Origin: a virus
Lineage: Duplodnaviria > Caudoviricetes
DNA length: 64,000 nt
Reading direction: 5' to 3' (one strand)
IMG/VR virus record: IMGVR_UViG_3300013426_000018
Span: 64,001-128,000 of that record
In this document: positions 13,218 to 39,213 of the stretch, one piece after another
Layout: each line of letters opens with the position of its first letter
How positions within the stretch are numbered: the stretch's first letter is position 1
Translations under genes and position numbers: made by a program
Notes under the pieces: model-generated
What the model was told of the DNA's origin: nothing
Seen by the model: only the letters and a program-made list of their open reading frames with translations
The model's database searches: none

Positions 13218-13796
13218 ATGAATTTGCCCGGAGTATATAAAATTTTTCTTGACAGATGGGATGAATATCAGTCTTGCTTCCTTGTCTCAGATACCCATTT
13301 TGGAGAAATGGATTTAGAAAAAGCATATCCTTTTCGCCCAAAAGCAGAAGAATTCGTTAAGTTAATTAATTCTAAAGTTGGGCGTAAAGATATTATTATT
13401 TGTTTGGGTGATTGCGGCAACCTTGAATACTGGAAGAAGATTCGTGGCTATAAGATACTTATAATGGGAAATCATGATACTAGTATTAAAAAGTGCCATA
13501 AGGTATTTAATGAAGTCTATCAGGGACCTGTTATTCTCGGTGAAAAGTTAATCTTATCCCATGAGCCCATTGCTGGCATCGATTGGGCATTAAATTTTCA
13601 CGGGCATACACATGATGGGCCCATTAAATCTGATCCTTATCATCTTAATATCAACTGCGATGCTAACAAGAGATATGAACCTTTTAACTTAAATAGTATG
13701 TTAAAGCATGGCCCAACTGCACATATTAAATCTCTTCATAGAGATATTATTGATAAAGCAACAACTCGAAAAAGTAAAAGAGGTGCCCGCAAATGA
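13218..13796 (+). CDS. Metallophosphoesterase
   Basis: SDTHFG, LGD, GNHD, SHEP, HGHTH motifs. Confidence 0.85.
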   Translation: MNLPGVYKIFLDRWDEYQSCFLVSDTHFGEMDLEKAYPFRPKAEEFVKLINSKVGRKDIIICLGDCGNLEYWKKIRGYKILIMGNHDTSIKKCHKVFNEVYQGPVILGEKLILSHEPIAGIDWALNFHGHTHDGPIKSDPYHLNINCDANKRYEPFNLNSMLKHGPTAHIKSLHRDIIDKATTRKSKRGARK

Positions 13797-16259: not shown

Positions 16260-17528
16260 ATGTTGAATAAAGACGGAATACGTGAGCTTGCCTACCTGGT
16301 TCGCATTGATGCTATTAAGCCCATCGTTGGCTCTGATAACTGCGAGTGTGCTGTTGTTAATGGATGGGAAGTAATGGTGCGAAAGAATACCTTCACTGCA
16401 AATGATATTGGTATTTATTTTGAAATTGATTCTAAGGTAAATACTACTAAACCCGAATTTGCTTTTCTTGCCTCTAAGGGCGGTAAGATTAAAACTCAAC
16501 GTTATACCTTTGGTGGCAAGGGCTTGATGATTTCTCAGGGTTTGCTGATGCACCCAAGCGATTTTGGATGGACCATTGTAGAAAGAGAAGATGATACTTG
16601 CTCTACTATGGTGGTAGAAAAGAATGGTACTGCCCATAGAGTTGATGATGAATCTCGTTTTCTTACTTTTACTCTTGGAGTAACTTATTCTACTGCGGAA
16701 GATAATGCGCGTAAGACTAATCCAGATGATAAGTATAAGAAGATGGCTCAGCGTCATGCAAAGCTATTTAAGAAGCCTTTTGTACATTGGATTATGAAGC
16801 ATAATTGGGGCCGCAAGGTAATGTTCTTTTTCTTTGGTAAGAAGAAGGATAAGAAAAATGAGTGGCCTGTAGGAAAGTTCCCCGGTGTATCAAAAACAGA
16901 TCAGGAACGTGCTGAAAATATGTCATGGATTTTGAATGATAAGACGCCTTTTATTATGACTCAAAAATGTGATGGCTCTTCTGGAACTTATATTCTTGAG
17001 AGATTAAAGCATAATAAGTTTGAGTTCTATGTATGTAGTAGAAATATTAGAATGATGAATCCTAATCAGGAATGTTTCTATAAGGATAAGAACTATTACT
17101 GGGAAGTAGCTATTAAATATGATATTGAAAATAAGATGCGGGACTACCTCAATAAACATCCCGATGTGTCGTTCGTATGTTGGCAGGGAGAAATTTGTGC
17201 TCCGCAAATTCAGTCGAATCCCCATCATTTGAAAGAGACTCATTTCTATTGCTTCCATATGACTGATAGCAAAACTGGACGTTTTGACATTCGGGATGCG
17301 GCAAAAATTTGGCATGAGTACGATATGGAAGTAGTCCCTATTGTGGATGAAAATTATATTATGCCTGATGAATTTGAAGAGTTCAAGTTGAGTGCAGATG
17401 GCCTGTATGATGCTTCTGTATGTGAGGGAAATCCTAATTGTGCACGAGAGGGATTCGTTTATTATAAGACTACTGACCCAACTTTCTCTTTTAAGAATGT
17501 CTCAAGATTGTATCTTTTAAAGCATTAA
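16260..17528 (+). CDS. ATP-dependent RNA ligase (Rnl2/DRB0094-like, N-terminal OB-type domain)
   Basis: TQKCDGSS, QGEI, REGFVY, FSFKNVS motifs; N-terminal LAYLVRIDAIKPIVGSDN. Confidence 0.85.
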   Translation: MLNKDGIRELAYLVRIDAIKPIVGSDNCECAVVNGWEVMVRKNTFTANDIGIYFEIDSKVNTTKPEFAFLASKGGKIKTQRYTFGGKGLMISQGLLMHPSDFGWTIVEREDDTCSTMVVEKNGTAHRVDDESRFLTFTLGVTYSTAEDNARKTNPDDKYKKMAQRHAKLFKKPFVHWIMKHNWGRKVMFFFFGKKKDKKNEWPVGKFPGVSKTDQERAENMSWILNDKTPFIMTQKCDGSSGTYILERLKHNKFEFYVCSRNIRMMNPNQECFYKDKNYYWEVAIKYDIENKMRDYLNKHPDVSFVCWQGEICAPQIQSNPHHLKETHFYCFHMTDSKTGRFDIRDAAKIWHEYDMEVVPIVDENYIMPDEFEEFKLSADGLYDASVCEGNPNCAREGFVYYKTTDPTFSFKNVSRLYLLKH

Positions 17529-21300: not shown

Positions 21301-21412
21301 CACCGCAAAGTAATTTATTGTCCTTTTTGTAAAGAAACTGTAAATCATGTTCAGTGTAAGACCTATTGGGATGTTGTTGAGTTTAAAGAGGCCTTTCAGA
21401 GAGGTGAGTTCA

Positions 21413-21904
21413 TTGAAGAAGCAAAAGAAAGTATTAATTATGTCCGGAGTAATGGGTAGTGGCAAAACTACTTATTGTCAAAAGTGGATTGCCAAGCATA
21501 AAAATTCAATTTGGATTTCTAGAGATGAAATTAGATATTCACTTCTTGCTCCTGATGAAGAATATTTTTCAAGAGAAAAAGAAGTTTTAAAGGAGTTCCA
21601 CAAGCAAGCTCAAGAAGCAATTGATAATGATCAAGTTGATACTGTTCTTTTGGATGCTTCTCATTTAAGTGATAAAGCAATTTGGAAAACTCTGAAATAT
21701 TTGAATATATCAAGAGAAGTAAAGATTGTAAATGTGCGGTTAAACACTCCTTTAAATGTTTGTTTAGAGAGAAATGCGAGCAGAAAAGGTCGTGCCCGAA
21801 TATCTGATAATGTAATTAAGAATGCTTATAGTATTTTTTTAAATAGCGAGAAGTTTGATTGTGTGCGGAAACGCATCAATGAAGTCTGGGAGGTGACTGT
21901 ATGA
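21413..21904 (+). CDS. Polynucleotide-kinase-like P-loop kinase
   Basis: GVMGSGKTT Walker A, ISRDEIR, LDASH, CLERNASR; adjacent to a phosphoesterase. Confidence 0.75.
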   Translation: MKKQKKVLIMSGVMGSGKTTYCQKWIAKHKNSIWISRDEIRYSLLAPDEEYFSREKEVLKEFHKQAQEAIDNDQVDTVLLDASHLSDKAIWKTLKYLNISREVKIVNVRLNTPLNVCLERNASRKGRARISDNVIKNAYSIFLNSEKFDCVRKRINEVWEVTV

Positions 21905-27186: not shown

Positions 27187-27278
27187 GACAGTTTGAGTGA
27201 GTCAGGTTTAAACTAGTTGATTGCTAATCAACCGTGCCAGAAATAGCACCGCTGGTTCAAATCCAGCAACTGTCGCCA
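27187..27278 (+). tRNA. tRNA-Ser(GCT)
   Basis: Cloverleaf, GTTGA-TTGCTAA-TCAAC, long variable arm, GCCA end. Confidence 0.9.
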
Positions 27279-27458
27279 TATAGAAATTCTTACATGATTT
27301 AATTCTGTTTTAGCGGGCTATATGCCTGCTATTTTTGTAATGTAAAAATAACACTATATAAAAAAAATAAAAAATATAAGGGGAGCGTTGCTCTTTTTTG
27401 TTTTTATAAAAATTTTATGGTATAATATTTATATAAAAAAGTAAGGAGAATTACTTAA

Positions 27459-28268
27459 ATGGCTTCAAATATTAAGAAAAATAATCAATATTATGGAAAA
27501 TATAGAGAGTGCTGTGTTGTAGCTTGTTTAAATGATTCTCCTGTTGAATATTTTGAAAAATATATTTTCTCACAAGAAGAAAAAGATGATCTTTATCAAG
27601 ATGGTAAAATTATTGCTGACTATTTAGGGGATCATAAGGCTACTTATAGTGGCAATCACACTGCTACTGCGGCAGGAGATATCATTCTAGATAATGGTGA
27701 AACTATTGAATTAAAGTGCATTAGTGCGGGAACAGGGACATATTTTAATACAAGCATTTATTATTTTCAAAAATTTGGATTTAATTTTAAAGATTATATG
27801 GAAAAGTATGGTTTTTACCAGCTTTTGGAAAATAACTTTGGAAAGATCTTTAAAATTAATAGAAAAAATAATTCTCCTATATCACAGCCCAATTCTTCTG
27901 CTATTCGACATAATTACATTGATATTTATAATGAAATTATTGTTCCCGCAGATAAACGAATAAGAGAGTATTTCGTTAAAGACTTAGTAAAATACTTTAT
28001 GGCTCATACTGATAAAATGTATGAATTTATTAATGATATGTTAAATAAAAAAACTGATACTTGTGATAAAGGATCACCAGATAGATTAATTATTTATAAT
28101 TATTCTAAAAAGAAAATTAAAGAAATTAATCTAAGAGATTTTTTTAAAGATGGAGAGATTATTATAACAGATAAAGGATTCAAAATTGGTAATGTCCGTT
28201 TTGCTATTGGTTGGCAAAATGGTAATGGACTTAATAATCCTACTATTCGAGTATTTTTGGAGGACTAA
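27459..28268 (+). CDS. Putative restriction endonuclease (PD-(D/E)xK)
   Basis: AGDIILDNGETIELKC motif; directly upstream of a methyltransferase. Confidence 0.55.
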   Translation: MASNIKKNNQYYGKYRECCVVACLNDSPVEYFEKYIFSQEEKDDLYQDGKIIADYLGDHKATYSGNHTATAAGDIILDNGETIELKCISAGTGTYFNTSIYYFQKFGFNFKDYMEKYGFYQLLENNFGKIFKINRKNNSPISQPNSSAIRHNYIDIYNEIIVPADKRIREYFVKDLVKYFMAHTDKMYEFINDMLNKKTDTCDKGSPDRLIIYNYSKKKIKEINLRDFFKDGEIIITDKGFKIGNVRFAIGWQNGNGLNNPTIRVFLED

Positions 28269-29132
28269 ATGGGACTAGATAAATTTTATACTTAGAAAGA
28301 AGTAGCTAAACAGTGTATTAATTTCTTAAAAGAAAAAGTTAATCTTACAAAAAAAGCTTCCTTTTTAGAGCCAAGTGCTGGAAATGGTGCTTTTTTAGAT
28401 TATCTTGATAATTATTTGGCTATCGATATTAAACCAGAAGATGACAGAATAAAAGAACAAGATTTTTTTGATTTTTCTTCTGACAAAAAAGATTATATAA
28501 CAATAGGTAATCCTCCTTTTGGAAAACGTTCTAAGATGGCTATTGATTTCTTTAATAAAGCCAGTCAATTTTCTGAAATAATTGCTTTTATCGTCCCTGT
28601 TTCTTTTATGAAATGGAGTGTTCAAAAAGTCCTTGATAAAAATTTTGCTTTAATTGATTATTTTTATTTAAATCCATGTTCTTTTTTAGAGAATGGAAAA
28701 CCGTTTGAAGTAAGAACTGTTTTTCAAATTTGGGTAAAAAAAAGTGGTCAATTCTATAAAGGAAAAGATCTACAGTTAAAGAAATCTCCTCCAATTTCTC
28801 ACAAAGATTTTCTCATTTGGCAATATAATGCCACCCCAGAAGCCATAAAATATATAGATGAAGATTGGGAAATTGCCACTTATCGACAAGGATATCATGA
28901 TTATAACAATCTTTTTTATAGAAAAGATTATGATTATATAAAAGAGAAAATGACCGGGCAAAAAAAGCAACAATTCTTTTTTATAAAACCATTAACTGAT
29001 GCCGCAAGAGAGATCATTCTCAATATGGATTTTAATCTTCTTGCCGAAAGGAATACTTCTACTCCTGGCTTTGGTAAAGGCGATTTTGTTAGTTATTATG
29101 AAGAAATGTTTGAAAAAGCAAAAATTTTATGA
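28269..29132 (+). CDS. N6-adenine/N4-cytosine DNA methyltransferase (single TAG at codon 9)
   Basis: DKFYT(Q)KEVA, FLEPSAGNGAF, IGNPPFG motifs. Confidence 0.85.
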
Positions 29133-29420
29133 TATAATATTTATGTAAAAAGATAAGGAGATATGAAAATGCCTAACGGATTTACTAAATATTATAATAC
29201 GGCTCCAAAGCTCAATAGTAAAGCACAGCAGTCTAAAAAGGCCAATGAGAGAACTTATGAAAAAGTTGTTTGTGCTGGATGTGGTAAGTCTAATGTAACG
29301 CTTTATAAGACTGTTTTTGGCACTTATGAGTGTAAGGATTGTAAAAATTCTTGCGAACTTAGACGGGCTGATACAGAAGTTTGAAAAATTAAAAAATTTA
29401 TGTTATAATATATACATAAG

Positions 29421-29498
29421 TTAAGTGGGTAGTTTAAGGCAAAACATCTTCCTAGGTAAAGATATGCTTGGTTAGCGACCGGCGCAAGCCCCACTTGA
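29421..29498 (+). ncRNA. tRNA-like structured RNA (non-canonical)
   Basis: TTAAGTGGG/CCCACTTGA closing stem, D-like arm, ATCTT/AAGAT arm with 8-nt loop, enlarged T-like arm; first item after a promoter. Confidence 0.4.
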
Positions 29499-29503
29499 GA
29501 TAT

Positions 29504-29579
29504 CCGGGTGTAACTCAGTTGCTAGAGTGCGCGGTTTGGGTCCGCGATGCCGTGAGTTGAAGTCTCACCACTCGGACCA
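29504..29579 (+). tRNA. tRNA-Pro(TGG)
   Basis: CGCGG-TTTGGGT-CCGCG, CCA end. Confidence 0.9.
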
Positions 29580-29681
29580 GGTATTAAGGAGTTCTTTAGT
29601 GACTTTGTTATTAATTTGAAAAAATAAAAAATTTATGTTATAATATATTTACAAAAGCTAAGGGGCTGTGCTCCTTAAATA

Positions 29682-29756
29682 TAGCCGATTGGTGTAATAG
29701 TAGCACGAGAGCCTTTGAAGCTTAAGGAGAGGGAGCATAACCTTCATCGGCTGCCA
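29682..29756 (+). tRNA. tRNA-Gln(TTG)
   Basis: Anticodon loop CTTTGAA, CCA end. Confidence 0.8.
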
Positions 29757-29773
29757 TAAACATTTAAAAGCAC

Positions 29774-29860
29774 GCGGATATGACGTAATAGGTAGCCGTA
29801 GCAGCCTTAGAAGCTGCCGAGAGATATCTCGTGGGAGTCCGAGTCTCCCTATCCGCACCA
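29774..29860 (+). tRNA. tRNA-Leu(TAG)
   Basis: GCAGC-CTTAGAA-GCTGC, long variable arm, ACCA. Confidence 0.9.
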
Positions 29861-30064
29861 TAAAGATATCCAAAAGGAGAACTATTATGAATAATTTGGA
29901 AATTGAACTTTTGAAAAATCGTATTCATCTTCTTACTCAGCGTGATCCAGTAGGAAACGCAAAGATTATTAAGAAGTTGGAACGTAAGCTTCGGGCGTTT
30001 TGTGGTTGAAAATAAAAAAATTATGATATAATATATATAAATTGAAGGGCGAAGCCCTTCAAAA

Positions 30065-30139
30065 AAGGCACATACAGCAATAACTTTTTAAAGAAAAACA
30101 TTAATTTTGGGTATTAATAAGTTTAATTTAAGGTGCCTT
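30065..30139 (+). ncRNA. ACAGCAA stem RNA copy 1
   Basis: AAGGCAC/GTGCCTT stem, ACAGCAA, internal TTAAT-TTTGGGT-ATTAA anticodon-like arm. Confidence 0.7.
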
Positions 30140-30145
30140 GTATAT

Positions 30146-30220
30146 GCTGGTGTAGCTCAGAGACAGAGCAACACTCTTGTAAAGTGTAGGTCGAGATTTT
30201 GAAATTCTCCACCAGCTCCA
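30146..30220 (+). tRNA. tRNA-Thr(TGT)
   Basis: ACACT-CTTGTAA-AGTGT, CCA end. Confidence 0.85.
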
Positions 30221-30322
30221 TGAACCGACATGTTTTAAAACTGCTGCCTACATGGTCTATGCGAGGCTTAATTGAGAAGAGGACCGAGAGAACCTGGGCA
30301 TTGTTTGAAAAAGGCCCTATAT

Positions 30323-30397
30323 GCAGGTGTGATGTAATTGGCAACATTTCACTCTTCCAAAGTGACTTTGAGGAATCGTACTCCTTCACCTGCTCCA
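30323..30397 (+). tRNA. tRNA-Gly(TCC)
   Basis: TCACT-CTTCCAA-AGTGA, TCCA end. Confidence 0.85.
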
Positions 30398-30400
30398 TAT

Positions 30401-30478
30401 GGCGCTATAGTTTACGTTTGGTTAGAACTTCGGGCCTTCAACCCGAGGAACCCAGTCCGACTCTGGGTAGCGTCACCA
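30401..30478 (+). tRNA. tRNA-Glu(TTC)
   Basis: TCGGG-CCTTCAA-CCCGA, CCA end. Confidence 0.8.
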
Positions 30479-30557
30479 AGGAAAAAATTTGAAAAAATAA
30501 AAAATTTATGTTATAATATATTTACAAAAGATAAGAAAAGGAAAAGGTGTTAAAAAT

Positions 30558-30914
30558 ATGGCTCGTTATAAGTTTTATGATTATAATGATAAAGATTCTG
30601 ACTCTCATGTAGTTGTATGCGTGAGTTCTTATGCAGGCAAACCTGTTAAGGGTCGTGCAAAGTGTTCTCCTATGGACGAATTTGATTTTAATAAAGGCAA
30701 GGAGTTGGCACAAGCTCGTTGTGACGCAGTAATTGCGGAAAAGCGTAAGAAGAGAGCTATGTCTAAGGTAATTGATGCTTATAATGCTTATACTGAAGCT
30801 TCTTTTTATCTAGAAGATATGGATCGGTATGCTAAGGATTCTGTAGTTGCTTGCCGAGAAGCGAAGGAGTATTTGGAGGAATTGGAAAAGAATATGTTAT
30901 CCGGGGAAATTTAA
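30558..30914 (+). CDS. Hypothetical phage protein
   Basis: 118 aa ORF after a promoter; KGRAKCSPMDEFDFNKGKELA. Confidence 0.6.
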   Translation: MARYKFYDYNDKDSDSHVVVCVSSYAGKPVKGRAKCSPMDEFDFNKGKELAQARCDAVIAEKRKKRAMSKVIDAYNAYTEASFYLEDMDRYAKDSVVACREAKEYLEELEKNMLSGEI

Positions 30915-30929
30915 TTTTTCCCTCTGAAT

Positions 30930-31020
30930 CGATGGGTGGCCGAGCGGCTTAAGGCGATAGTCCTGAAAACTATTGACCGTGATGAGCGGTCCGTCAGTTC
31001 AAATCTGACCCCATCGGCCA
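30930..31020 (+). tRNA. tRNA-Ser(TGA)
   Basis: ATAGT-CCTGAAA-ACTAT, long variable arm, GCCA. Confidence 0.85.
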
Positions 31021-31025
31021 TCTAA

Positions 31026-31094
31026 AAGGCTCACACAGCAATCTTTAATGCTTGCAAAGCGATAGACTGGTAATCTATTTTTATTATGAGCCTT
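31026..31094 (+). ncRNA. ACAGCAA stem RNA copy 2
   Basis: AAGGCTCA/TGAGCCTT stem; internal ATAGA-CTGGTAA-TCTAT arm. Confidence 0.7.
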
Positions 31095-31124
31095 AAGGGT
31101 GATATTCTCAGTATCACCCAGTAT

Positions 31125-31214
31125 GCTCCTGTAGCTCAATAGGTAGAGCCCTCCCCTTATAAGAGAGACGCCCTCACAAGGTATATGATGGATCATACCC
31201 ATCCAGGAGCACCA
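31125..31214 (+). tRNA. tRNA-Ile(TAT) with unusually long variable region
   Basis: CTCCC-CTTATAA-GAGAG, GCTCCTG/CAGGAGC acceptor, ACCA. Confidence 0.75.
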
Positions 31215-31217
31215 TAA

Positions 31218-31277
31218 AAGACGCCTGCAGCAATACTTTGATGAAAAATTTGCAGAATAAGTTTTTTGAAGTGTCTT
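31218..31277 (+). ncRNA. ACAGCAA stem RNA copy 3 (GCAGCAA variant)
   Basis: AAGACGC/GTGTCTT stem; internal TTGCAGA loop. Confidence 0.65.
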
Positions 31278-31283
31278 GCTTAT

Positions 31284-31361
31284 GAGTTTGTCGTATAACT
31301 AATATGTTCAGCTATATAGAGGTGCTGAAAGATATAAGTTTAAATCTTATTAAACTCACCA
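31284..31361 (+). ncRNA. Degenerate tRNA-like element with enlarged anticodon loop
   Basis: GAGTTT/AAACTC-ACCA acceptor, TTCAGC/GCTGAA arm with 11-nt loop, ATAAG/CTTAT T-arm. Confidence 0.55.
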
Positions 31362-31396: not shown

Positions 31397-31675
31397 ATGG
31401 TAATTAAGCAGTTTTAGAATGGCAAATATTCTTATAATTATAAGAAATATATTGCCGATACAAATGAAGATGTTGCAAAGATTCCTGTTGATATTAATGG
31501 CTCAATGATTGGCTGTGAAGCTTATGTAGTTACTACTGGAAAGACTTACGTTCTTGGTAGTGGAAAGATTTGGTATGCTTCAACGGGTGAGAAAATCGAA
31601 TGTGGGTGTAAGGATGTGGTTTCTGAATCGACTATTTGGGAGCCTGTTAGTTCACCTGATGAAAAGAATCCTTGA
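31397..31675 (+). CDS. Small hypothetical protein (1 TAG)
   Basis: GAGGT RBS, open to TGA with TAG=Gln. Confidence 0.55.
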
Positions 31676-31736
31676 AAAAATAAAAAATTTTTGGTATAAT
31701 ATTTATACAAGTTAAGTGAACGAAGTTTACTTTAAA

Positions 31737-31858
31737 AAGGCACTTACAGCAATCTTTTAATATAAAAAAGTTATATGTTATGGGTTTGATTTCCATTAAT
31801 TCCAATTGGGATTATAGCTCAACTGGTAGAGCGATAATTATTTTAATTTATGTGCCTT
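31737..31858 (+). ncRNA. ACAGCAA stem RNA copy 4
   Basis: AAGGCAC/GTGCCTT stem enclosing a T-arm-like hairpin followed by a tRNA 5' segment (TAGCTCAACTGGTAGAGCG). Confidence 0.7.
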
Positions 31859-31887
31859 GCGGGCATCGAAAGGTGCTCATTAGATAT

Positions 31888-32183
31888 TGGGGAGTAGCGC
31901 AATTGGCAGAGCGAAGGTCTCTTGGATACTTCTGGACATCAAGTCGGGAAACTACTTGATGAATGTCGGCTAACTCGGTGAAACTCTTTTTTAAGACAAC
32001 GCCGAACTAAGTTTAAGTCTTATTAGATTTAATAAATGCGTAGAGAGCATATACCGACCCCTAAGTCAGTAATGATATGGTGAAGACGTGCTCCGGACTA
32101 CAACGATATTTGATATCGGCTATAGTGATATAGAGTAGTGTGAAAACCTTAGGTTGTGGGATCGTACCCCACCTCCCCCGCCA
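31888..32183 (+). tRNA. Intron-containing tRNA, most likely amber suppressor tRNA-Gln(CTA); exons 31888-31922 and 32143-32183
   Basis: Spliced arm AAGGT-CTCT|AAA-ACCTT; 1:72 mismatch, G2-C71, G3-C70, G73, short variable loop. Confidence 0.75.
31923..32142 (+). mobile_element. Group I intron in suppressor tRNA
   Basis: Exon ends in U, intron ends in G; P3 GTCGG/CCGAC, P7 GAGCAT/GTGCTC; core similar to intron 32394-32645. Confidence 0.8.
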
Positions 32184-32227: not shown

Positions 32228-32333
32228 TAGACGTTAACAGCAATTTTATAATATTAAAAAGAAAAGTTTTTCATATTTTTTATACACTCCTTTTCAACTG
32301 TGCCTCTCGCAGGTAAATTCATTAAAGCGTCTA
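32228..32333 (+). ncRNA. ACAGCAA stem RNA copy 5
   Basis: TAGACGTT/AGCGTCTA stem with ACAGCAA. Confidence 0.65.
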
Positions 32334-32358
32334 GTGATTTAAAATTGTAATTTAATAT

Positions 32359-32687
32359 GGCCCATTATCCCAATCGGTAGAGGAAGAGGACTTTGATGTG
32401 TTTCTTACTTTAAAGTAAGCTACTTTTTTAGTAGAGAGTGCCTAAGAGGAAACTCTTAGAGTAGAAGCTGGCTAAAACGGCGAAGGCAAACACAAAACGC
32501 CGTGCTAAGTTTAAATCTTATTAGATTTAATAAATGTGTAGAGAGTATATACCAGCTACCTAAACCAGAAATGGCATGGTAAAGACGTATTCCGGACTAC
32601 AACTTATTTTTATTAACAAGGCCATGGTAACATGGAGTAGTGTCGAAAATCCTTACAGTGTGGATTCGAATTCCACATGGGCTACCA
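32359..32687 (+). tRNA. Intron-containing tRNA-Leu(TAA); exons 32359-32393 and 32646-32687
   Basis: Spliced arm GAGGA-CTT|AAAA-TCCTT; canonical TTCGAAT T loop; ACCA. Confidence 0.8.
32394..32645 (+). mobile_element. Group I intron in tRNA-Leu(TAA)
   Basis: U/G boundaries, P3 AGCTGG/CCAGCT, GAG guide pairing with CUU. Confidence 0.8.
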
Positions 32688-32716
32688 GGAATACCCCCTC
32701 GATATGAGGGGATATT

Positions 32717-32810
32717 CAAGACATATACAGCAACTCTTTAATGAATAACAAAAAATTCTGATAAAATTTTTTTAAGTGGGTTCAAATCCCGCAAACTTAA
32801 ATGTGTCTTG
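32717..32810 (+). ncRNA. ACAGCAA stem RNA copy 6
   Basis: CAAGACATA/TGTGTCTTG stem; internal AATT-CTGATAA-AATT arm and GTGGG-TTCAAAT-CCCGC T-arm. Confidence 0.75.
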
Positions 32811-32839: not shown

Positions 32840-32985
32840 GCGAATGTAGCTCAGCGGCAGAGCATCGCCCTTTATCTGGTTCGATTAATGAAAGTCACTA
32901 AACTTATTTTAGTTATGTTAGTTCAAGTCTAACACCAGATTCCATAAGGCGAGGGTCGAGGGATCAGCACCCTCCATTCGCACCA
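32840..32985 (+). tRNA. Outer tRNA (predicted Lys TTT) interrupted by a nested tRNA-like insert
   Basis: GCGAATG/CATTCGC-ACCA acceptor, D arm, TCGCC/GGCGA anticodon stem flanking a 71-nt insert. Confidence 0.7.
32874..32944 (+). ncRNA. Inner tRNA-like element nested in the anticodon loop
   Basis: ATCTGGT/ACCAGAT-T-CCA acceptor, GATT/AGTC D arm, GTTAG-TTCAAGT-CTAAC T arm. Confidence 0.75.
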
Positions 32986-33006
32986 GCTTCCTTTCATGGC
33001 AATCAA

Positions 33007-33086
33007 AAGACAGCTACAGCAAATTTTTTATGAAAAAGTTTTAATATAGAAGATATTTGGGGATTCCTTTCAATTTATACTGTCTT
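33007..33086 (+). ncRNA. ACAGCAA stem RNA copy 7
   Basis: AAGACAG/CTGTCTT stem with ACAGCAA. Confidence 0.65.
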
Positions 33087-33507
33087 GTTCTTGAAAAATA
33101 AAAAAATTTATGCTATAATATATATAGAAAAATTGAGAAATTATATTTCTCAAAAAGGTAAAGTAAATCTATATATATTATAGCATATTTTTTATTTTAG
33201 GAGTTGTTAAAAATGGTTTTTGGATTATTGTTTTTTCTCTGATTTTACCCTTTTTGTTTATTTTAAAACTATTTTTGATAAAATTAAATATAGAATCTTT
33301 AAGAAGATTACTTATTGGAAAGAGAAAAAGTATGAGCAGCAAAAAAAAAGCAATCCATTCTATCTGCTAAAACTGCTGAAATGATGCGAGTATGGTCTGA
33401 AGATATTGAATCTTATAAACTTGAAAGTATTAAAGAACTACAGTCTATAATTGATGAAAATAATAAAAAGATTAATGAGTATAAAAAACGTGTGGAGGAA
33501 TTAAAAA

Positions 33508-33750: not shown

Positions 33751-33805
33751 ATAAAAATATAAACCTACAGACTTGAAAAAGTCCAAGAGAAAAGGAGATA
33801 AAAAT

Positions 33806-35401
33806 ATGAACAATTTTATGAATGGTATGAAGCAGGCTACTAATTTTGGATATACCGCTAATGGCGGTCTTCAGCATAACCATCTTGCCGGTGCAGTATA
33901 TGAAATGTACGCTAAGTGCGGAGCTTATAGACAGCGTAGTGACGAAGATTGTATTTTTGCTTTCAAGCAGGCTTTTGATGAGGATGAGGAACTCGCCATG
34001 AAATGTCTGTTTTACCTTCGGGATGTATGTGAAGGGGCAGGGGAAAGACGCTTCTTTCGCGTATGCTATCATTGGTTGGCTACTAAGCATCCTGACGCAG
34101 CTCTCCGCAATCTAAAGTATATTCCTACCTATGGAAGATTCGATGATGTTTTTTCTGTCGTAGGCACTTCTCTAGAAGATAACGCTTTTGCCCTGATTAA
34201 GCATCAGTTGGCTATGGACGCAAAGGATGTTATGACTCCCAATGGGGCTATCTCTCTGTGCGCTAAGTGGGCTCCTAGTTGTAATACTAGCTCTCAGAAG
34301 ACTCGTGCGTTGGCTACTAAGCTGCGTAAGTATATGGGATTTAGCGAAAAACAGTATCGAAAGTTGCTAAGCACTTTGCGTAAGCGTATTAATGTTCTTG
34401 AGCGTCTTATGAGTGCTAATGAATGGGATAAGATCGATTTCTCAGCTATTCCTTCTCAGGCAGGTATTAAGTATCGCAAGGCATTTATCAGACACGATTT
34501 GGAACGTAAGAAGGCTGACCCCAAGGCAGTTACTTATGAAGAGTTCGTTAAGGACGATTCTACTAAAGTAAATGCTGGGGCAATGGCTCCTTACGAAGTT
34601 GTCCATAAGGCAGTTGATTATTTGCGTAAGAATTATACTTCTAAGTATGATTATAATACTAACACGCATACTTTTTATACTTCAAAGAGTATGGATGATA
34701 CTGAACGTCTTGCTATTAACAAGTATTGGGATAATTTGGCTGATTATTTCAAGGATGCTACTTTTAATGGCATTTGTGTTGTTGATACTTCTGGTTCTAT
34801 GACCTGTGGTCGTGGGGCTGCCACTCCTATTGATGTAGCTATCTCACTGGGTCTGTATTGTGCTGAACGCAATCATGGGCCTTTCGCTAATCACTATATC
34901 AGTTTTGCCTCTCGTCCTCAGATGATTGAGACTTCTGGCATTGATTTTGTTGATAAGGTTCTGCGTATTTACAAGACTAACCTTGTTGATAATACTAATC
35001 TTGAAGCTGTCTTTAATCTGATGCTACAAACTGCTATCGATAATAATTGTTCTCAGGACGAAATTCCTCAGACGGTTCTTGTTATTAGTGATATGCAAGT
35101 TGATTCAGCTGTAACTTTTGGTATGGGTTATGGCTGGGGTAGTTATGGTAATAAATCTGGTCAGATCCGCACTATGATGGAAAAGATGCGTGAACGATGG
35201 GCTGCTAGAGGATATCAGATGCCTAAAATCGTATATTGGAATGTTAATGCGAGCCAGGACACATTCCTTGACGATGGCCCTGATGTTACTTACGTTAGTG
35301 GAGCTTCCGCAACGGTCTTCAAGCAGGTTCTCACCGGGAAAAGTGGATATGATCTTATGATATCTACGCTGTCTAGTGACCGCTATAAGGATATCCATTA
35401 A
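33806..35401 (+). CDS. DUF2828-family protein with C-terminal vWA domain
   Basis: TANGG, FYLRD..G.GERR, YGRFDD, AKWAPS, VVDTSGSM (MIDAS), ISDMQ, IVYWNV motifs. Confidence 0.85.
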   Translation: MNNFMNGMKQATNFGYTANGGLQHNHLAGAVYEMYAKCGAYRQRSDEDCIFAFKQAFDEDEELAMKCLFYLRDVCEGAGERRFFRVCYHWLATKHPDAALRNLKYIPTYGRFDDVFSVVGTSLEDNAFALIKHQLAMDAKDVMTPNGAISLCAKWAPSCNTSSQKTRALATKLRKYMGFSEKQYRKLLSTLRKRINVLERLMSANEWDKIDFSAIPSQAGIKYRKAFIRHDLERKKADPKAVTYEEFVKDDSTKVNAGAMAPYEVVHKAVDYLRKNYTSKYDYNTNTHTFYTSKSMDDTERLAINKYWDNLADYFKDATFNGICVVDTSGSMTCGRGAATPIDVAISLGLYCAERNHGPFANHYISFASRPQMIETSGIDFVDKVLRIYKTNLVDNTNLEAVFNLMLQTAIDNNCSQDEIPQTVLVISDMQVDSAVTFGMGYGWGSYGNKSGQIRTMMEKMRERWAARGYQMPKIVYWNVNASQDTFLDDGPDVTYVSGASATVFKQVLTGKSGYDLMISTLSSDRYKDIH

Positions 35402-35761
35402 TAACTTTTAGGAGAAGGCTTTTGCTTTCTCCTAAAATTTTTGGTATAATAACAAAAAGGGCAAGATAAATAAAATAGTGCCCTTTCTTTTTTATTTTTT
35501 ATAAAGAGAGAAAGGAGAATAATTGTATTCTATACTATTTTATTGCGGGAATGCTCTTTATTTATTTTGTAATTCCCCTCTCTGAAAATATTTTATCTTT
35601 TTTAGGGGCTTGGTTAAAATACCAAGAAACTAGATTTAGCACAGAAACTTATAAAATTAGCAAAAGAGCCTAGAAAGAAGTAGAAGAAAGCTCTTCTATT
35701 CACGCAATTGGCTTTACTTATACCGATGAAGAAGAAACTCCAGAAGAAGAGGATGAAGAAG

Positions 35762-37003
35762 ATGACTCATAAATTTTATGATACTTGTAGTTTGTTATTA
35801 AAAGCTGGGCACGTTTTTGATGAAGAAGATACTACTTTAGTAATTTCTTCTATTACTTTAGAAGAACTCGAGAATATTAAAACATCCAGTAGAAAAGATA
35901 ATAATGTTAAATTTGCGGCCCGCAAATTAACACATGAATTAGATGAACATTTTGGTGAATTTGAAACTATTATTTATGTTCCTTCTCTTTTGGAAGAACC
36001 TAATTTTGATTAGTATGAACCTACTAATGATTTAAAAATTATTGCTTGTGCCAATGTAGCAAATGAGCTATGGGAAGATTTAATTTTTATAACTAATGAT
36101 TTATGCTGTAAAAATTTAGCTTTAATGCTTCTAAAGTGCCCAATAGAGAAATATGTACTAGACGCGCCAGATTATACTGGTTATAAAGTAGTATCTTTAA
36201 CAGAAGAACAATTATTAGAATTTTATGAGAATACTACAAAAAATTTCTATAATTTATATATTGGTCAATATTTAATTCTAAAAGATTTGGATGGTAATAC
36301 TTTGGATGTCCGATGTTGGACCGGAGAAAATCATCGTTATATAAATACTAAACCAATAGATTCAAAATGGTTTGGTAAAATTTCCCCTTATAATGGAGAT
36401 ATTCTTTAGAAATTAGCTATTGATAGCCTTTATAATAATCAATTAACTGTTTTACGAGGCCCCGCAGGCACAGGAAAGTCAATGCTTGGATTATCTTTTT
36501 TATTCTCTCAGTTGGAACGTCATATAATTGATAGAATTTATATTTTTTGTAATCCAGTAGCAACTAAAGATGCGGCCAAACTTGGATTTTATCCAGGAGA
36601 TAAGAATATGAAACTATTAGATTCTCAAGTAGGTAACTTTTTAGTTGGTAAGCTTGGTGATTATACTGCGGTAGAAAGACTTGTTACCGATGGGTAGATT
36701 GTTTTAATTCCTGCAGCCGATTGCCGAGGAATGGATATAACTAATAATAGTGGAGTTTATATTACAGAAGCTTAGAACTCTACTATTGATATGATGAAAT
36801 TAATGGTTTAGCGTATTGGCGAAAATACTAAATGTGTAATTGAGGGCGATGATAAAACTTAGGTAGATTTAATTTCTTATGAAGGAACTAATAATGGTCT
36901 ATCAAGATTATCAGAAGTTTTTAAGGGACAACCTTATTATGGAGAAATAACTCTATCTAATTGTTATCGTTCTAAATTAGCTAAACAAGCTGAATTAATG
37001 TAA
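35762..37003 (+). CDS. phoH: PIN-PhoH family ATPase (code 15)
   Basis: YDTCSL PIN start, GPAGTGKS, LGFYPG, TEA(Q)N, EGDDKT(Q)VD with TAG=Gln. Confidence 0.9.
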
Positions 37004-37842: not shown

Positions 37843-39213
37843 ATGTCAGATATTGAAAATGAAGTATATAATTTTTTAAAAAATAAAAATTTTACATTAT
37901 CTGGTATCGCTGGGATTTTAGGTAATGCTAATGCTGAAAGTAACGTAAAATCAACTTGTTTAGAAGATATTGGAAAACAATAGCTAAAAATGACTGATTA
38001 GGAATATGCTTTTAAAGTTGATAATGGAACATATACTAATTTTATTTATGATGGATATGGATGGGGGATCTTCTAGTGGACTTGGTACGCGCGTAAAAAA
38101 GCATTGCTCAATTTTTGTAAACAAAAAAATAAGTCAATTGGAGACTTATCCACACAATTAGAATTTTTTGTGAAAGAGCTATAGTAGAGCTTCTCCAGTG
38201 TGTATAAAACATTAATCACATCCAATGATGTAAAAGAATGCTCTGACGCAATGCTTTTTAAATTTGAAGCACCTGCGGCCGCAAATTCCAAAAGCCAGCA
38301 AAGATATAATATGTCAATGGTTTATTATAATAGATTCACGAAAGGAGAGAAAACTATGGGAACAAATACTTATCCAAAAGGCATAAAAAAATAGTTGAGC
38401 AAATATTTTAACTCAACTGAATTTGATTGTCATGGTTCAGGTTGTTGTTCAATGACTTTAATTAATTCAAAATTAGTAGAATATCTAGATAAAATAAGGG
38501 AACATTTTAATGCTCCTGTTACTATTTCTAGTGGATATAGATGTGCTATTCATAATAAAAATGTAGGTGGAGCTACCGGGTCACGCCATAATAAGGGTGA
38601 CGCTGCTGACATTGTTGTAAAAGGACATAGCCCACGAGAAGTAGCACAATATGCAGAAAGTATTGGAATTAAAGGCATTGGCCTATATGAAACCGCAAAA
38701 GACGGCTATTTTGTCCATATTGATACCCGTAACTATAAATCTTTCTGGTATGGACAAGCTCAAGTTGCTAAAACTACTTTTGGCTCTAGCTCTAGCTCTT
38801 CTACAGGAATATCTACTACTAAAAGTTACTTATCAATAGGAGATACCGGGAGCCGAGTTAAAAGCTTATAGCAATCTTTAATTAAATTAGGTTATTTAGC
38901 TTCTGGAGAAGATGATGGCATTTATGGAAATAATACTGCTAATGCAGTTAAAACATTCCAAAAGAAGCAGAATCTTGTGGCAGATGGCTATGCTGGGCAA
39001 AATACCTTAAATGCTATTGCTAAGTTAGATAAAACCTCTGGGGCAAAAGCTGTTACAGTAACCGCAAATGTTTTAAATGTACGGACTGGCCCAGGAGCTC
39101 AATACCCAATTATAGACAGAATATCTAAAGGAGCCTCGTATTAGTTATTGGAAGAACAAAATGGATGGGGCCGGATTCCTAAGGGTTGGGTGAGCATGGA
39201 ATATGTCTCTTAA
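37843..39213 (+). CDS. Modular endolysin: tail-lysozyme-like + peptidase M15 + PG-binding + SH3 (8 TAG)
   Basis: GNANAES and GIF(Q)WT; SSGYRC..HN, SRH..G.AAD, FVHID; DGIYG.NTANAVKTFQ; LNVRTGPG; single frame with TAG=Gln. Confidence 0.85.

Follow-up and report, generated by a model that had tools for sequence, protein, structure and literature searches.

Can a tRNA gene that holds a second tRNA in its anticodon loop still yield a usable tRNA and, if so, by what means would the inner element be removed? The question is raised by a 64,000-nt stretch of phage DNA (hereafter the window), which spans bases 64001–128000 of a 173,969-bp (174-kb) virus record (32.7% G+C; rated complete). With introns allowed, ARAGORN calls a tRNA-Lys(ttt) gene at 32840–32985 with a 71-nt intervening sequence exactly at 32874–32944, placed between anticodon nucleotides U35 and U36; in its default mode, with introns off, it calls neither the outer gene nor the inner element. 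The Rfam tRNA model matches the insert at 32874–32941 with 41 bits (gathering threshold 29; E = 2.9e-5 over the whole window); in its alignment the acceptor has 7 bp, the D stem 4 bp and the middle stem 5 bp with a 5-nt loop, and the T arm is standard. The MFE fold of the 146-nt locus is a double cloverleaf (−43.3 kcal/mol, z = −3.53; equalled by 0 of 200 dinucleotide shuffles), in which all 71 nt of the insert are folded as a cloverleaf with 4/4 inner arms formed, together with the outer stems except part of the D stem. When the 78-nt loop-plus-insert was shuffled, 175 of 200,000 shuffles had at least 6/7 pairs of the terminal stem, an adjacent 5-bp T stem and a restored 7-nt loop, a criterion much weaker than the observed structure.

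An initial annotation, made from the sequence, had described this locus as a tRNA nested in tRNA-Lys(UUU), and the intron-permitting call, the Rfam score of the insert and the double-cloverleaf fold all bear that description out. Its proposal that removal of the insert from nucleotide 1 through CCA restores tRNA-Lys(UUU) with A73 also stands: the joined exons are called by ARAGORN as a 75-nt tRNA-Lys(UUU), with A73 and an encoded CCA. Two of its descriptions can be refined. The inner anticodon arm, termed degenerate, has an intact stem of 5 perfect base pairs, but its loop is only 5 nt; the insert thus lacks the 7-nt anticodon loop with U33 of a decoding tRNA, and cannot decode. The outer cloverleaf, termed complete, is indeed called as tRNA-Lys, but its T loop is unusual, T54 and A58 both being absent, and the NTCAGCA form of the loop occurs in only two other tRNAs among ~740 in related loci; the window copy could therefore be impaired. 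The ordinary tRNA nearest to the insert is a phage tRNA-Ile(UAU) (72% identity). A group I core, which the annotation had also denied, was not found: no Intron_gpI match overlaps 32874–32944, even at E up to 10. The parts of the locus, together with the other features discussed below, are collected in Table 1.

Table 1. Positions of the nested tRNA-Lys locus, the candidate enzymes and the Ro60-like gene in the window, followed by the nested tRNAs of the family sorted by host tRNA.
Feature	Position	Strand	Basis or remark
5′ exon of tRNA-Lys(UUU)	32840–32873	+	ARAGORN with introns
Acceptor, 5′ strand	32840–46		
D arm	32849–63		
Anticodon stem, 5′ strand	32865–69		
C32–U35	32870–73		
71-nt tRNA-shaped intervening sequence	32874–32944	+	Rfam tRNA and MFE cloverleaf
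Insert acceptor	32874–80 with 32934–40		7/7 pairs
Insert D arm	32883–96		
Insert middle hairpin	32898–912		
Insert T arm	32917–33		Loop TTCAAGT
Insert discriminator U	32941		
Insert CCA	32942–44		
3′ exon of tRNA-Lys(UUU)	32945–32985	+	
U36, A37, A38	32945–47		
Anticodon stem, 3′ strand	32948–52		Followed by the variable loop
T arm	32958–74		Loop ATCAGCA
Acceptor, 3′ strand	32975–81		Followed by A73
CCA	32983–85		
Phosphoesterase	13218–13796	+	phrog_547, E = 1.5e-25; end-healing candidate
ATP-dependent RNA ligase, Rnl5 family (Naegleria gruberi/Deinococcus type)	16260–17528	+	Candidate exon sealer
Polynucleotide-kinase-like P-loop protein	21347–21904	+	phrog_505, E = 4.2e-19
Ro60-like gene	33773–35401		DUF2828, DUF7788 and vWA (Pfam); 788 nt downstream of the nested tRNA
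Nested tRNAs, host Lys(UUU) (n = 7)	Window, L021:17439, L104, L114, L098, L010, L032		
Nested tRNAs, host amber suppressor CUA (n = 4)	L065:14115, L056, L020, L028		
Nested tRNA, host Ile(UAU) (n = 1)	L065:4146		
Nested tRNA, host Asn(GUU) (n = 1)	L021:7325		

Around 190 loci, with extra stretches, were fetched from related phages through the Ro60-like protein and scanned with ARAGORN -i and a script of our own, which gave 13 nested tRNAs in 12 contigs, the window genome included. Ten of these were recognized by the outer tRNA alone, and three came from a scan that required the tabulated stems. In a MAFFT alignment of ten inserts the 5′ ends were misplaced throughout, and the stems were tabulated by distance from the ends instead; a covariance model of the inserts was not used, since it would match every tRNA. 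The scan of L119–L193 gave no further nested tRNA, and one candidate, at L044:5620, proved to be a false positive of our own script.

A single boundary rule describes all 13 cases: excision from inner nucleotide +1 through the CCA (n = 11), or through the discriminator where the insert is CCA-less (n = 2), leaves a loop of 7 nt, with U33, that presents a sensible anticodon. The joined products are called by ARAGORN as canonical tRNAs of 75–78 nt in 11/13 cases, those of L010 (cut by the contig end) and L020 (odd outer T loop) having been read by eye. Insertion occurs at 34/35, 35/36 or 36/37, always within or beside the anticodon, and nucleotide −1 is U in 12 of the 13. Specifically, the outer stems are intact throughout (13/13), while the inserts, which range from 47-nt minihelices to 112 nt and up to a complete tRNA-Asn, have a 7/7 terminal stem in 11/13 and both a 5/5 adjacent T stem and the G53–C61 pair in 13/13. 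The middle of the insert may be absent altogether or comprise as much as a complete D arm and anticodon arm, and insert sequences differ freely despite retention of the stems. CCA-ending and CCA-less inserts occur together in one phage (G008). In seven loci an Rfam match to the outer gene spans the insert. Three inserts are matched in their own right, those of the window, L065 (31 bits) and L032 (73.5 bits), the last being a complete tRNA-Asn(GUU). Outside the 13, tRNA-shaped inserts of 118–121 nt (L098:1642–1838, L102:4115–4311, L105:1428–1624 and L112:2003–2199) have a CCA-less 3′ junction and give no 7-nt loop under the simple rule. Junctions yielding CAU or UAU, which the initial annotation had considered formally possible, are disfavoured for the window, where the family rule gives UUU and the exons are 76–79% identical to the uninterrupted tRNA-Lys(UUU) genes of relatives.

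The choice of host tRNA is strongly non-random. Lys(UUU) accounts for 7/13 nested hosts, compared with 4.5% of 730 distinct ordinary tRNAs, corresponding to a binomial P of ~5e-7 on the assumption of independence, which the events do not all satisfy because the inserts of L104, L114 and L098 are mutually homologous.

Alleles with and without the insert can be compared directly in several of these phages. Once joined, the L098 exons show 100% identity to the uninterrupted tRNA-Lys genes of L102 and L105, and blastn between these loci reveals flanks of 93–95% identity around a single clean gap of 112 nt, which is the insert from +1 to CCA. Three other phages have uninterrupted genes with 96% identity to the exons of L114, and one syntenic site holds a plain tRNA-Lys in G006 and a tRNA-Lys carrying tRNA-Asn in G005. 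Presence/absence polymorphism is therefore seen for L098, L114 and G005; at the window's own locus no empty allele was found. Exact-pattern scans of viral and metagenome contigs with the window's 5′ exon, and blastn against deposited phage genomes, returned no match, and the closest relatives by metagenome Ro60-like protein (L119–L121, 83–85% identity) differ upstream and are without the tRNA region. Because no close relative has the window's locus, conservation of the window insert is argued from distant family members. The comparison with related phages that the annotation had called for thus supplied both the nested structure, in 12 further tRNAs, and the uninterrupted tRNA-Lys of sister phages, and its view of the tRNA-shaped element as an intervening sequence bounded by the inner mature ends is upheld by the rule and by the empty alleles. 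To judge from their sequences, the nested tRNAs are a recurrent, insertion-polymorphic family in a group of Ro60-encoding phages with genomes of ~120–200 kb. The exact +1-to-CCA boundaries raise a possible origin, in that a repair ligase could have inserted a mature tRNA at a break in an anticodon loop, the product then being copied into DNA.

Whether the inserts must leave the RNA can be judged from phages in which a nested gene is the only one of its kind. Two complete genomes with terminal repeats, G017 and G010, have a clear TAG-recoding signal, and in each the nested gene is the only tRNA found with a CUA anticodon; since the sole CUA tRNA of two complete TAG-recoded genomes is nested, the inserts would have to leave the RNA. 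Besides the nested gene the window genome has no tRNA-Lys, and only one codon is used more often than AAA (58.8 per 1000). The window's phage is probably TAG-recoded as well, because reading TAG as sense roughly doubles the long open frames: in G000, the complete genome, the count of stop-to-stop frames of 200 aa or longer goes from 49 to 88. TAG is present in late-looking genes, such as 35708–37003 and 37843–39213, and absent from the ligase and kinase genes.

The nested locus lies at the end of a tRNA array (27187–31214). The 2.3 kb of non-coding DNA around it include a permuted, YrlA-like tRNA mimic and a pair of tRNA genes that are each split by a group I intron. The first of the latter (31888–32183) is split by an intron of ~220 nt with a weak Rfam group I match (18.6 bits) and clear homology to the intron of the second; its exons, CTCT / AAA, would give a spliced anticodon of CUA, making this tRNA the only candidate amber suppressor in the probably TAG-recoded window genome. 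The second (32358–32697; Rfam Intron_gpI 34.1 bits, E = 2e-6, below gathering) probably has the junction CTT / AAAA and the anticodon UAA, and is not a normal tRNA-Leu because its variable loop is short. Within the array, the 90-nt tRNA-Ile(UAU) call at 31125–31214 has an unpaired 'variable region' of 20 nt, its T loop (ATCATAC) is non-canonical, and it may carry an insertion outside the anticodon loop; at 29683–29753 there is an Rfam tRNA match (44.4 bits) with no ARAGORN call. After each tRNA a spacer design recurs, consisting of a closing stem and then (A)CAGCAA (31218–31290, 31737–31860, 32228–32335, 32717–32810 and 33005–33090). In relatives, hairpin + CAGCA inserts of 31–49 nt are found in the anticodon region of tRNA-like genes (e.g. 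L031:14131, L027:7829 and L021:17682), and several mini-inserts (L010, L020 and L028) have a GGCAGCA loop in place of the T loop. Near-consensus sigma-70-type promoters lie at 31660–31700 and 33090–33120 (TTGAAA, 17 nt, TATAAT; one with an extended −10), which suggest a host with standard rather than Bacteroidota-type promoters. Other structured RNAs of related phages include a phage-encoded tmRNA within a tRNA array (L028:10571–10916, G009; Rfam 114 bits) and a RAGATH-33 RNA (L114:5471–5599; 126.8 bits).

On balance, we consider it probable, if by no means assured, that the window's sole tRNA-Lys gene is interrupted by a tRNA-shaped insert that is excised by tRNA end-processing enzymes and whose flanks are sealed by an RNA ligase. 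RNase P and RNase Z recognize the acceptor/T-arm stack with discriminator and CCA and leave 3′-OH and 5′-phosphate ends, and bacterial RNase P prefers U at nucleotide −1. The enzymatic steps, all of which we infer, would begin with a precursor transcript folded as a double cloverleaf, in which the insert, its usable anticodon loop lost, would keep the unit read by the processing enzymes: a 7-bp acceptor on a 5-bp T arm, discriminator and CCA. From this precursor, (i) host RNase P would cut at inner nucleotide +1, leaving the 5′ exon with a 3′-OH; (ii) an RNase Z-type endonuclease would cut directly after the inner CCA, leaving the 3′ exon with a 5′-phosphate; (iii) the exons would be held together by pairing of the outer acceptor and anticodon stems; and (iv) an ATP-dependent RNA ligase, most simply the Rnl5-type enzyme of the phage, would seal U35 to U36 to give tRNA-Lys(UUU). 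The 3′ cut is the weakest step, because CCA inhibits many bacterial RNase Z enzymes. The shift of the boundary from CCA to discriminator in CCA-less inserts is what would be expected of a CCA-tolerant RNase Z-type enzyme, and the tRNase Z of Thermotoga maritima cuts directly after CCA (PMC3161902).

The phage enzymes named by the initial annotation, an RNA ligase, a kinase and phosphoesterases, were all located. The ligase matches NgrRnl (5cot) in a phmmer search of the PDB (E = 5.6e-21) and phrog_968 RNA ligase (E = 1.6e-49), has the Pfam PHA02142 OB-fold domain and contains no in-frame TAG. ATP-dependent ligases of the Rnl5 family join 3′-OH and 5′-phosphate ends, and have been characterized on nicked duplexes as opposed to anticodon-loop breaks (PMC7261155). 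The kinase is an end-healing candidate that would be required only if the cuts left a 5′-OH, and the phage encodes two phosphoesterases. A search of the genome found no gene for RtcB, splicing endonuclease (PF01974), RNase Z-like protein, CCA-adding enzyme or RNase P RNA. RtcB joins the end chemistry opposite to 3′-OH/5′-phosphate. A search for the T4 Rnl1 family likewise gave no match in the genome, but none in positive-control genomes either. Across the genomes compared, the Rnl5 gene and the inserts do not co-vary: G005 and G014–G016 have nested tRNAs, yet only other or weak PF09414 matches, and in G007, which has the ligase, the stretches read contain no nested tRNA.

Stated more broadly, and here we are more tentative, bacteria–phage systems may possess a third route of tRNA splicing, in which RNase P and an RNase Z-type nuclease release a tRNA-shaped intron at its mature ends and an ATP-dependent RNA ligase of the phage reseals the exons; among TAG-recoded relatives, where the sole amber suppressor bears the intron and the ligase gene is TAG-free, splicing would gate the code switch. 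If true, this would represent a new splicing logic, with an intron whose tRNA shape leads the cell's resident tRNA-trimming enzymes to cut it out, and the widespread phage sets of RNA ligase and kinase would gain a role beyond damage repair. The phage group is well suited to testing, given its short substrates (47–112-nt inserts), its occupied and empty alleles, and suppressors readable as amber read-through.

The main rival retains the intron and changes the enzymes. A dedicated anticodon-nuclease-like nuclease, of phage or host, would cut both junctions to leave 2′,3′-cyclic phosphate and 5′-OH ends, which the kinase and phosphoesterase would heal before the ligase seals, as in T4 Pnk/Rnl1. 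We regard this as rather unlikely, even though a polynucleotide-kinase-like protein and two phosphoesterases are encoded besides the ligase and cutting after CCA poses a difficulty for many RNase Z enzymes. Left unexplained would be the retention of exactly the RNase P/RNase Z unit (the 12-bp acceptor–T stack, discriminator and CCA) while the middle decays, the insert that is a complete tRNA-Asn, and the position of the boundary at the discriminator in CCA-less inserts.

Alternatively, a selfish or accidental tRNA-like insertion may have destroyed this copy of tRNA-Lys, in which case no splicing would occur and at most the inner element would be released. Intact outer stems in every member of the family, together with a residual loop of exactly 7 nt each time, are not expected of dead genes; nor are the nesting of the sole CUA suppressor in two complete TAG-recoded genomes, that of the window's sole tRNA-Lys despite heavy AAA use, and a non-random host tRNA (Lys(UUU) in 7/13 versus 4.5%). 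The aberrant outer T loop and the gain and loss of inserts between sister phages would fit such decay, which we nevertheless judge improbable. Insofar as it rests on intact outer stems and sole-tRNA cases, this judgement applies to the family, and is less certain for the window copy given its odd T loop.

The unspliced 146-nt RNA might itself be the product, a Y-RNA-like tRNA mimic working with the Ro60-like protein encoded downstream. The product of that gene is predicted to be Ro60/TROVE-like by its modelled fold (pLDDT only 66): the best 12 PDB matches consist entirely of Ro60, Rsr and TROVE proteins, led in Foldseek by Deinococcus radiodurans Rsr (2nvo, E = 2.6e-7), Thermus phage phiLo Ro60 and human Ro60, and a sequence-profile search of the protein against the PDB gave no Ro60 match. 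In L017, L018 and L020 the homologue of this gene is split by an insert of ~650–700 nt. A YrlA-like element (31759–31857; Rfam YrlA 32.7 bits, E = 1e-4, below gathering), in which a T arm, a closed acceptor hairpin and a D arm, arranged in permuted order, are enclosed by a terminal stem, lies ~1 kb upstream of the nested locus, and the nested tRNA-Lys of G008 is also ~950 nt upstream of a Ro60-like gene. This proximity does not extend to the family, since the nested tRNAs of other phages are 3–8 kb away within ordinary tRNA arrays, and the tRNA-Lys at the corresponding site of sister phages is uninterrupted. The Rfam YrlA model, which describes a Ro-binding terminal helix with a permuted tRNA-like domain and whose sole match in the region is the upstream element, does not match 32840–32985, and a rule restoring 7-nt loops would be purposeless in such an RNA, so that we give this explanation very little weight. 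An assembly artefact joining two tRNA genes is scarcely credible, as 11 more contigs, drawn from different metagenomes and unrelated in sequence, share the architecture.

Excision of a tRNA-shaped intron at its mature ends, the reading we prefer, can be set against several known systems. Precedent for the element itself is brief: Devoto et al. (2019; PMC6784885, Fig. 4) described 'enigmatic' introns in the tRNAs of Lak megaphages, one of which 'may encode a tRNA', and tRNA alleles with and without the intron, and a 2026 survey of jumbo phages (PMC13037316) repeats the remark on tRNA introns in one sentence. Our full-text literature search found no mechanism, boundary rule or experiment for tRNA-shaped phage tRNA inserts. 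In the window locus, likewise, the flanks form a canonical tRNA after excision and the insert is tRNA-like and lies in the anticodon loop; by this resemblance, the locus is a member of a barely described class of tRNA-shaped phage tRNA inserts. The Lak introns share with other members of the present family the presence/absence alleles among related phages, and their phages likewise use alternative coding, whereas their reports comprise a few sentences, without mechanism, boundary rule or enzymes, and the present family belongs to a different phage group (~120–200 kb, with the Ro60-like protein) and, in the window, a different host tRNA, Lys(UUU).

Textbook bacterial and phage tRNA introns are self-splicing group I RNAs, marked by a conserved core (P3–P9), a terminal G and an internal guide sequence. 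Those of cyanobacterial and plastid tRNA-Leu(UAA) and of phage tRNAs resemble the present inserts in lying in or beside the anticodon, in a 5′ exon that ends in U and in a sporadic distribution among relatives. Two group I introns lie 200–900 nt upstream of the nested locus, and the CUA-suppressor site that exon reading assigns to a group I intron in the window is occupied by a tRNA-shaped insert in relatives. The 71-nt insert differs in having neither a catalytic core nor an Rfam group I match; without such a core it would not self-splice, and protein enzymes would be needed. Archaeal and eukaryal tRNA introns are removed from a bulge-helix-bulge, two 3-nt bulges separated by a 4-bp helix, by the EndA/Sen endonuclease family, with RtcB or Trl1 as ligase. 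Protein-dependent cutting and ligation around an anticodon-loop insert would be common to both systems, but the window junction is, in the MFE fold, a 4-nt/7-nt asymmetric internal loop between 5-bp and 7-bp helices, the genome has no PF01974 match, and the ends expected here (3′-OH and 5′-phosphate) are opposite. The repair of PrrC-cleaved tRNA-Lys(UUU) by T4 Pnk/Rnl1 shares the tRNA species, the set of kinase, phosphoesterase and RNA ligase, and a break in the anticodon loop; T4, however, repairs a damaged host tRNA, whereas the break in the present case would be built into a gene of the phage, and the window ligase is of the Rnl5 type. Relative to these systems, what is new here is the occurrence of the class in Ro60-encoding, TAG-recoded phages, a boundary rule that holds in 13/13 cases, exact empty-site alleles, a full tRNA within a tRNA, and sole-suppressor cases that would make maturation obligatory.
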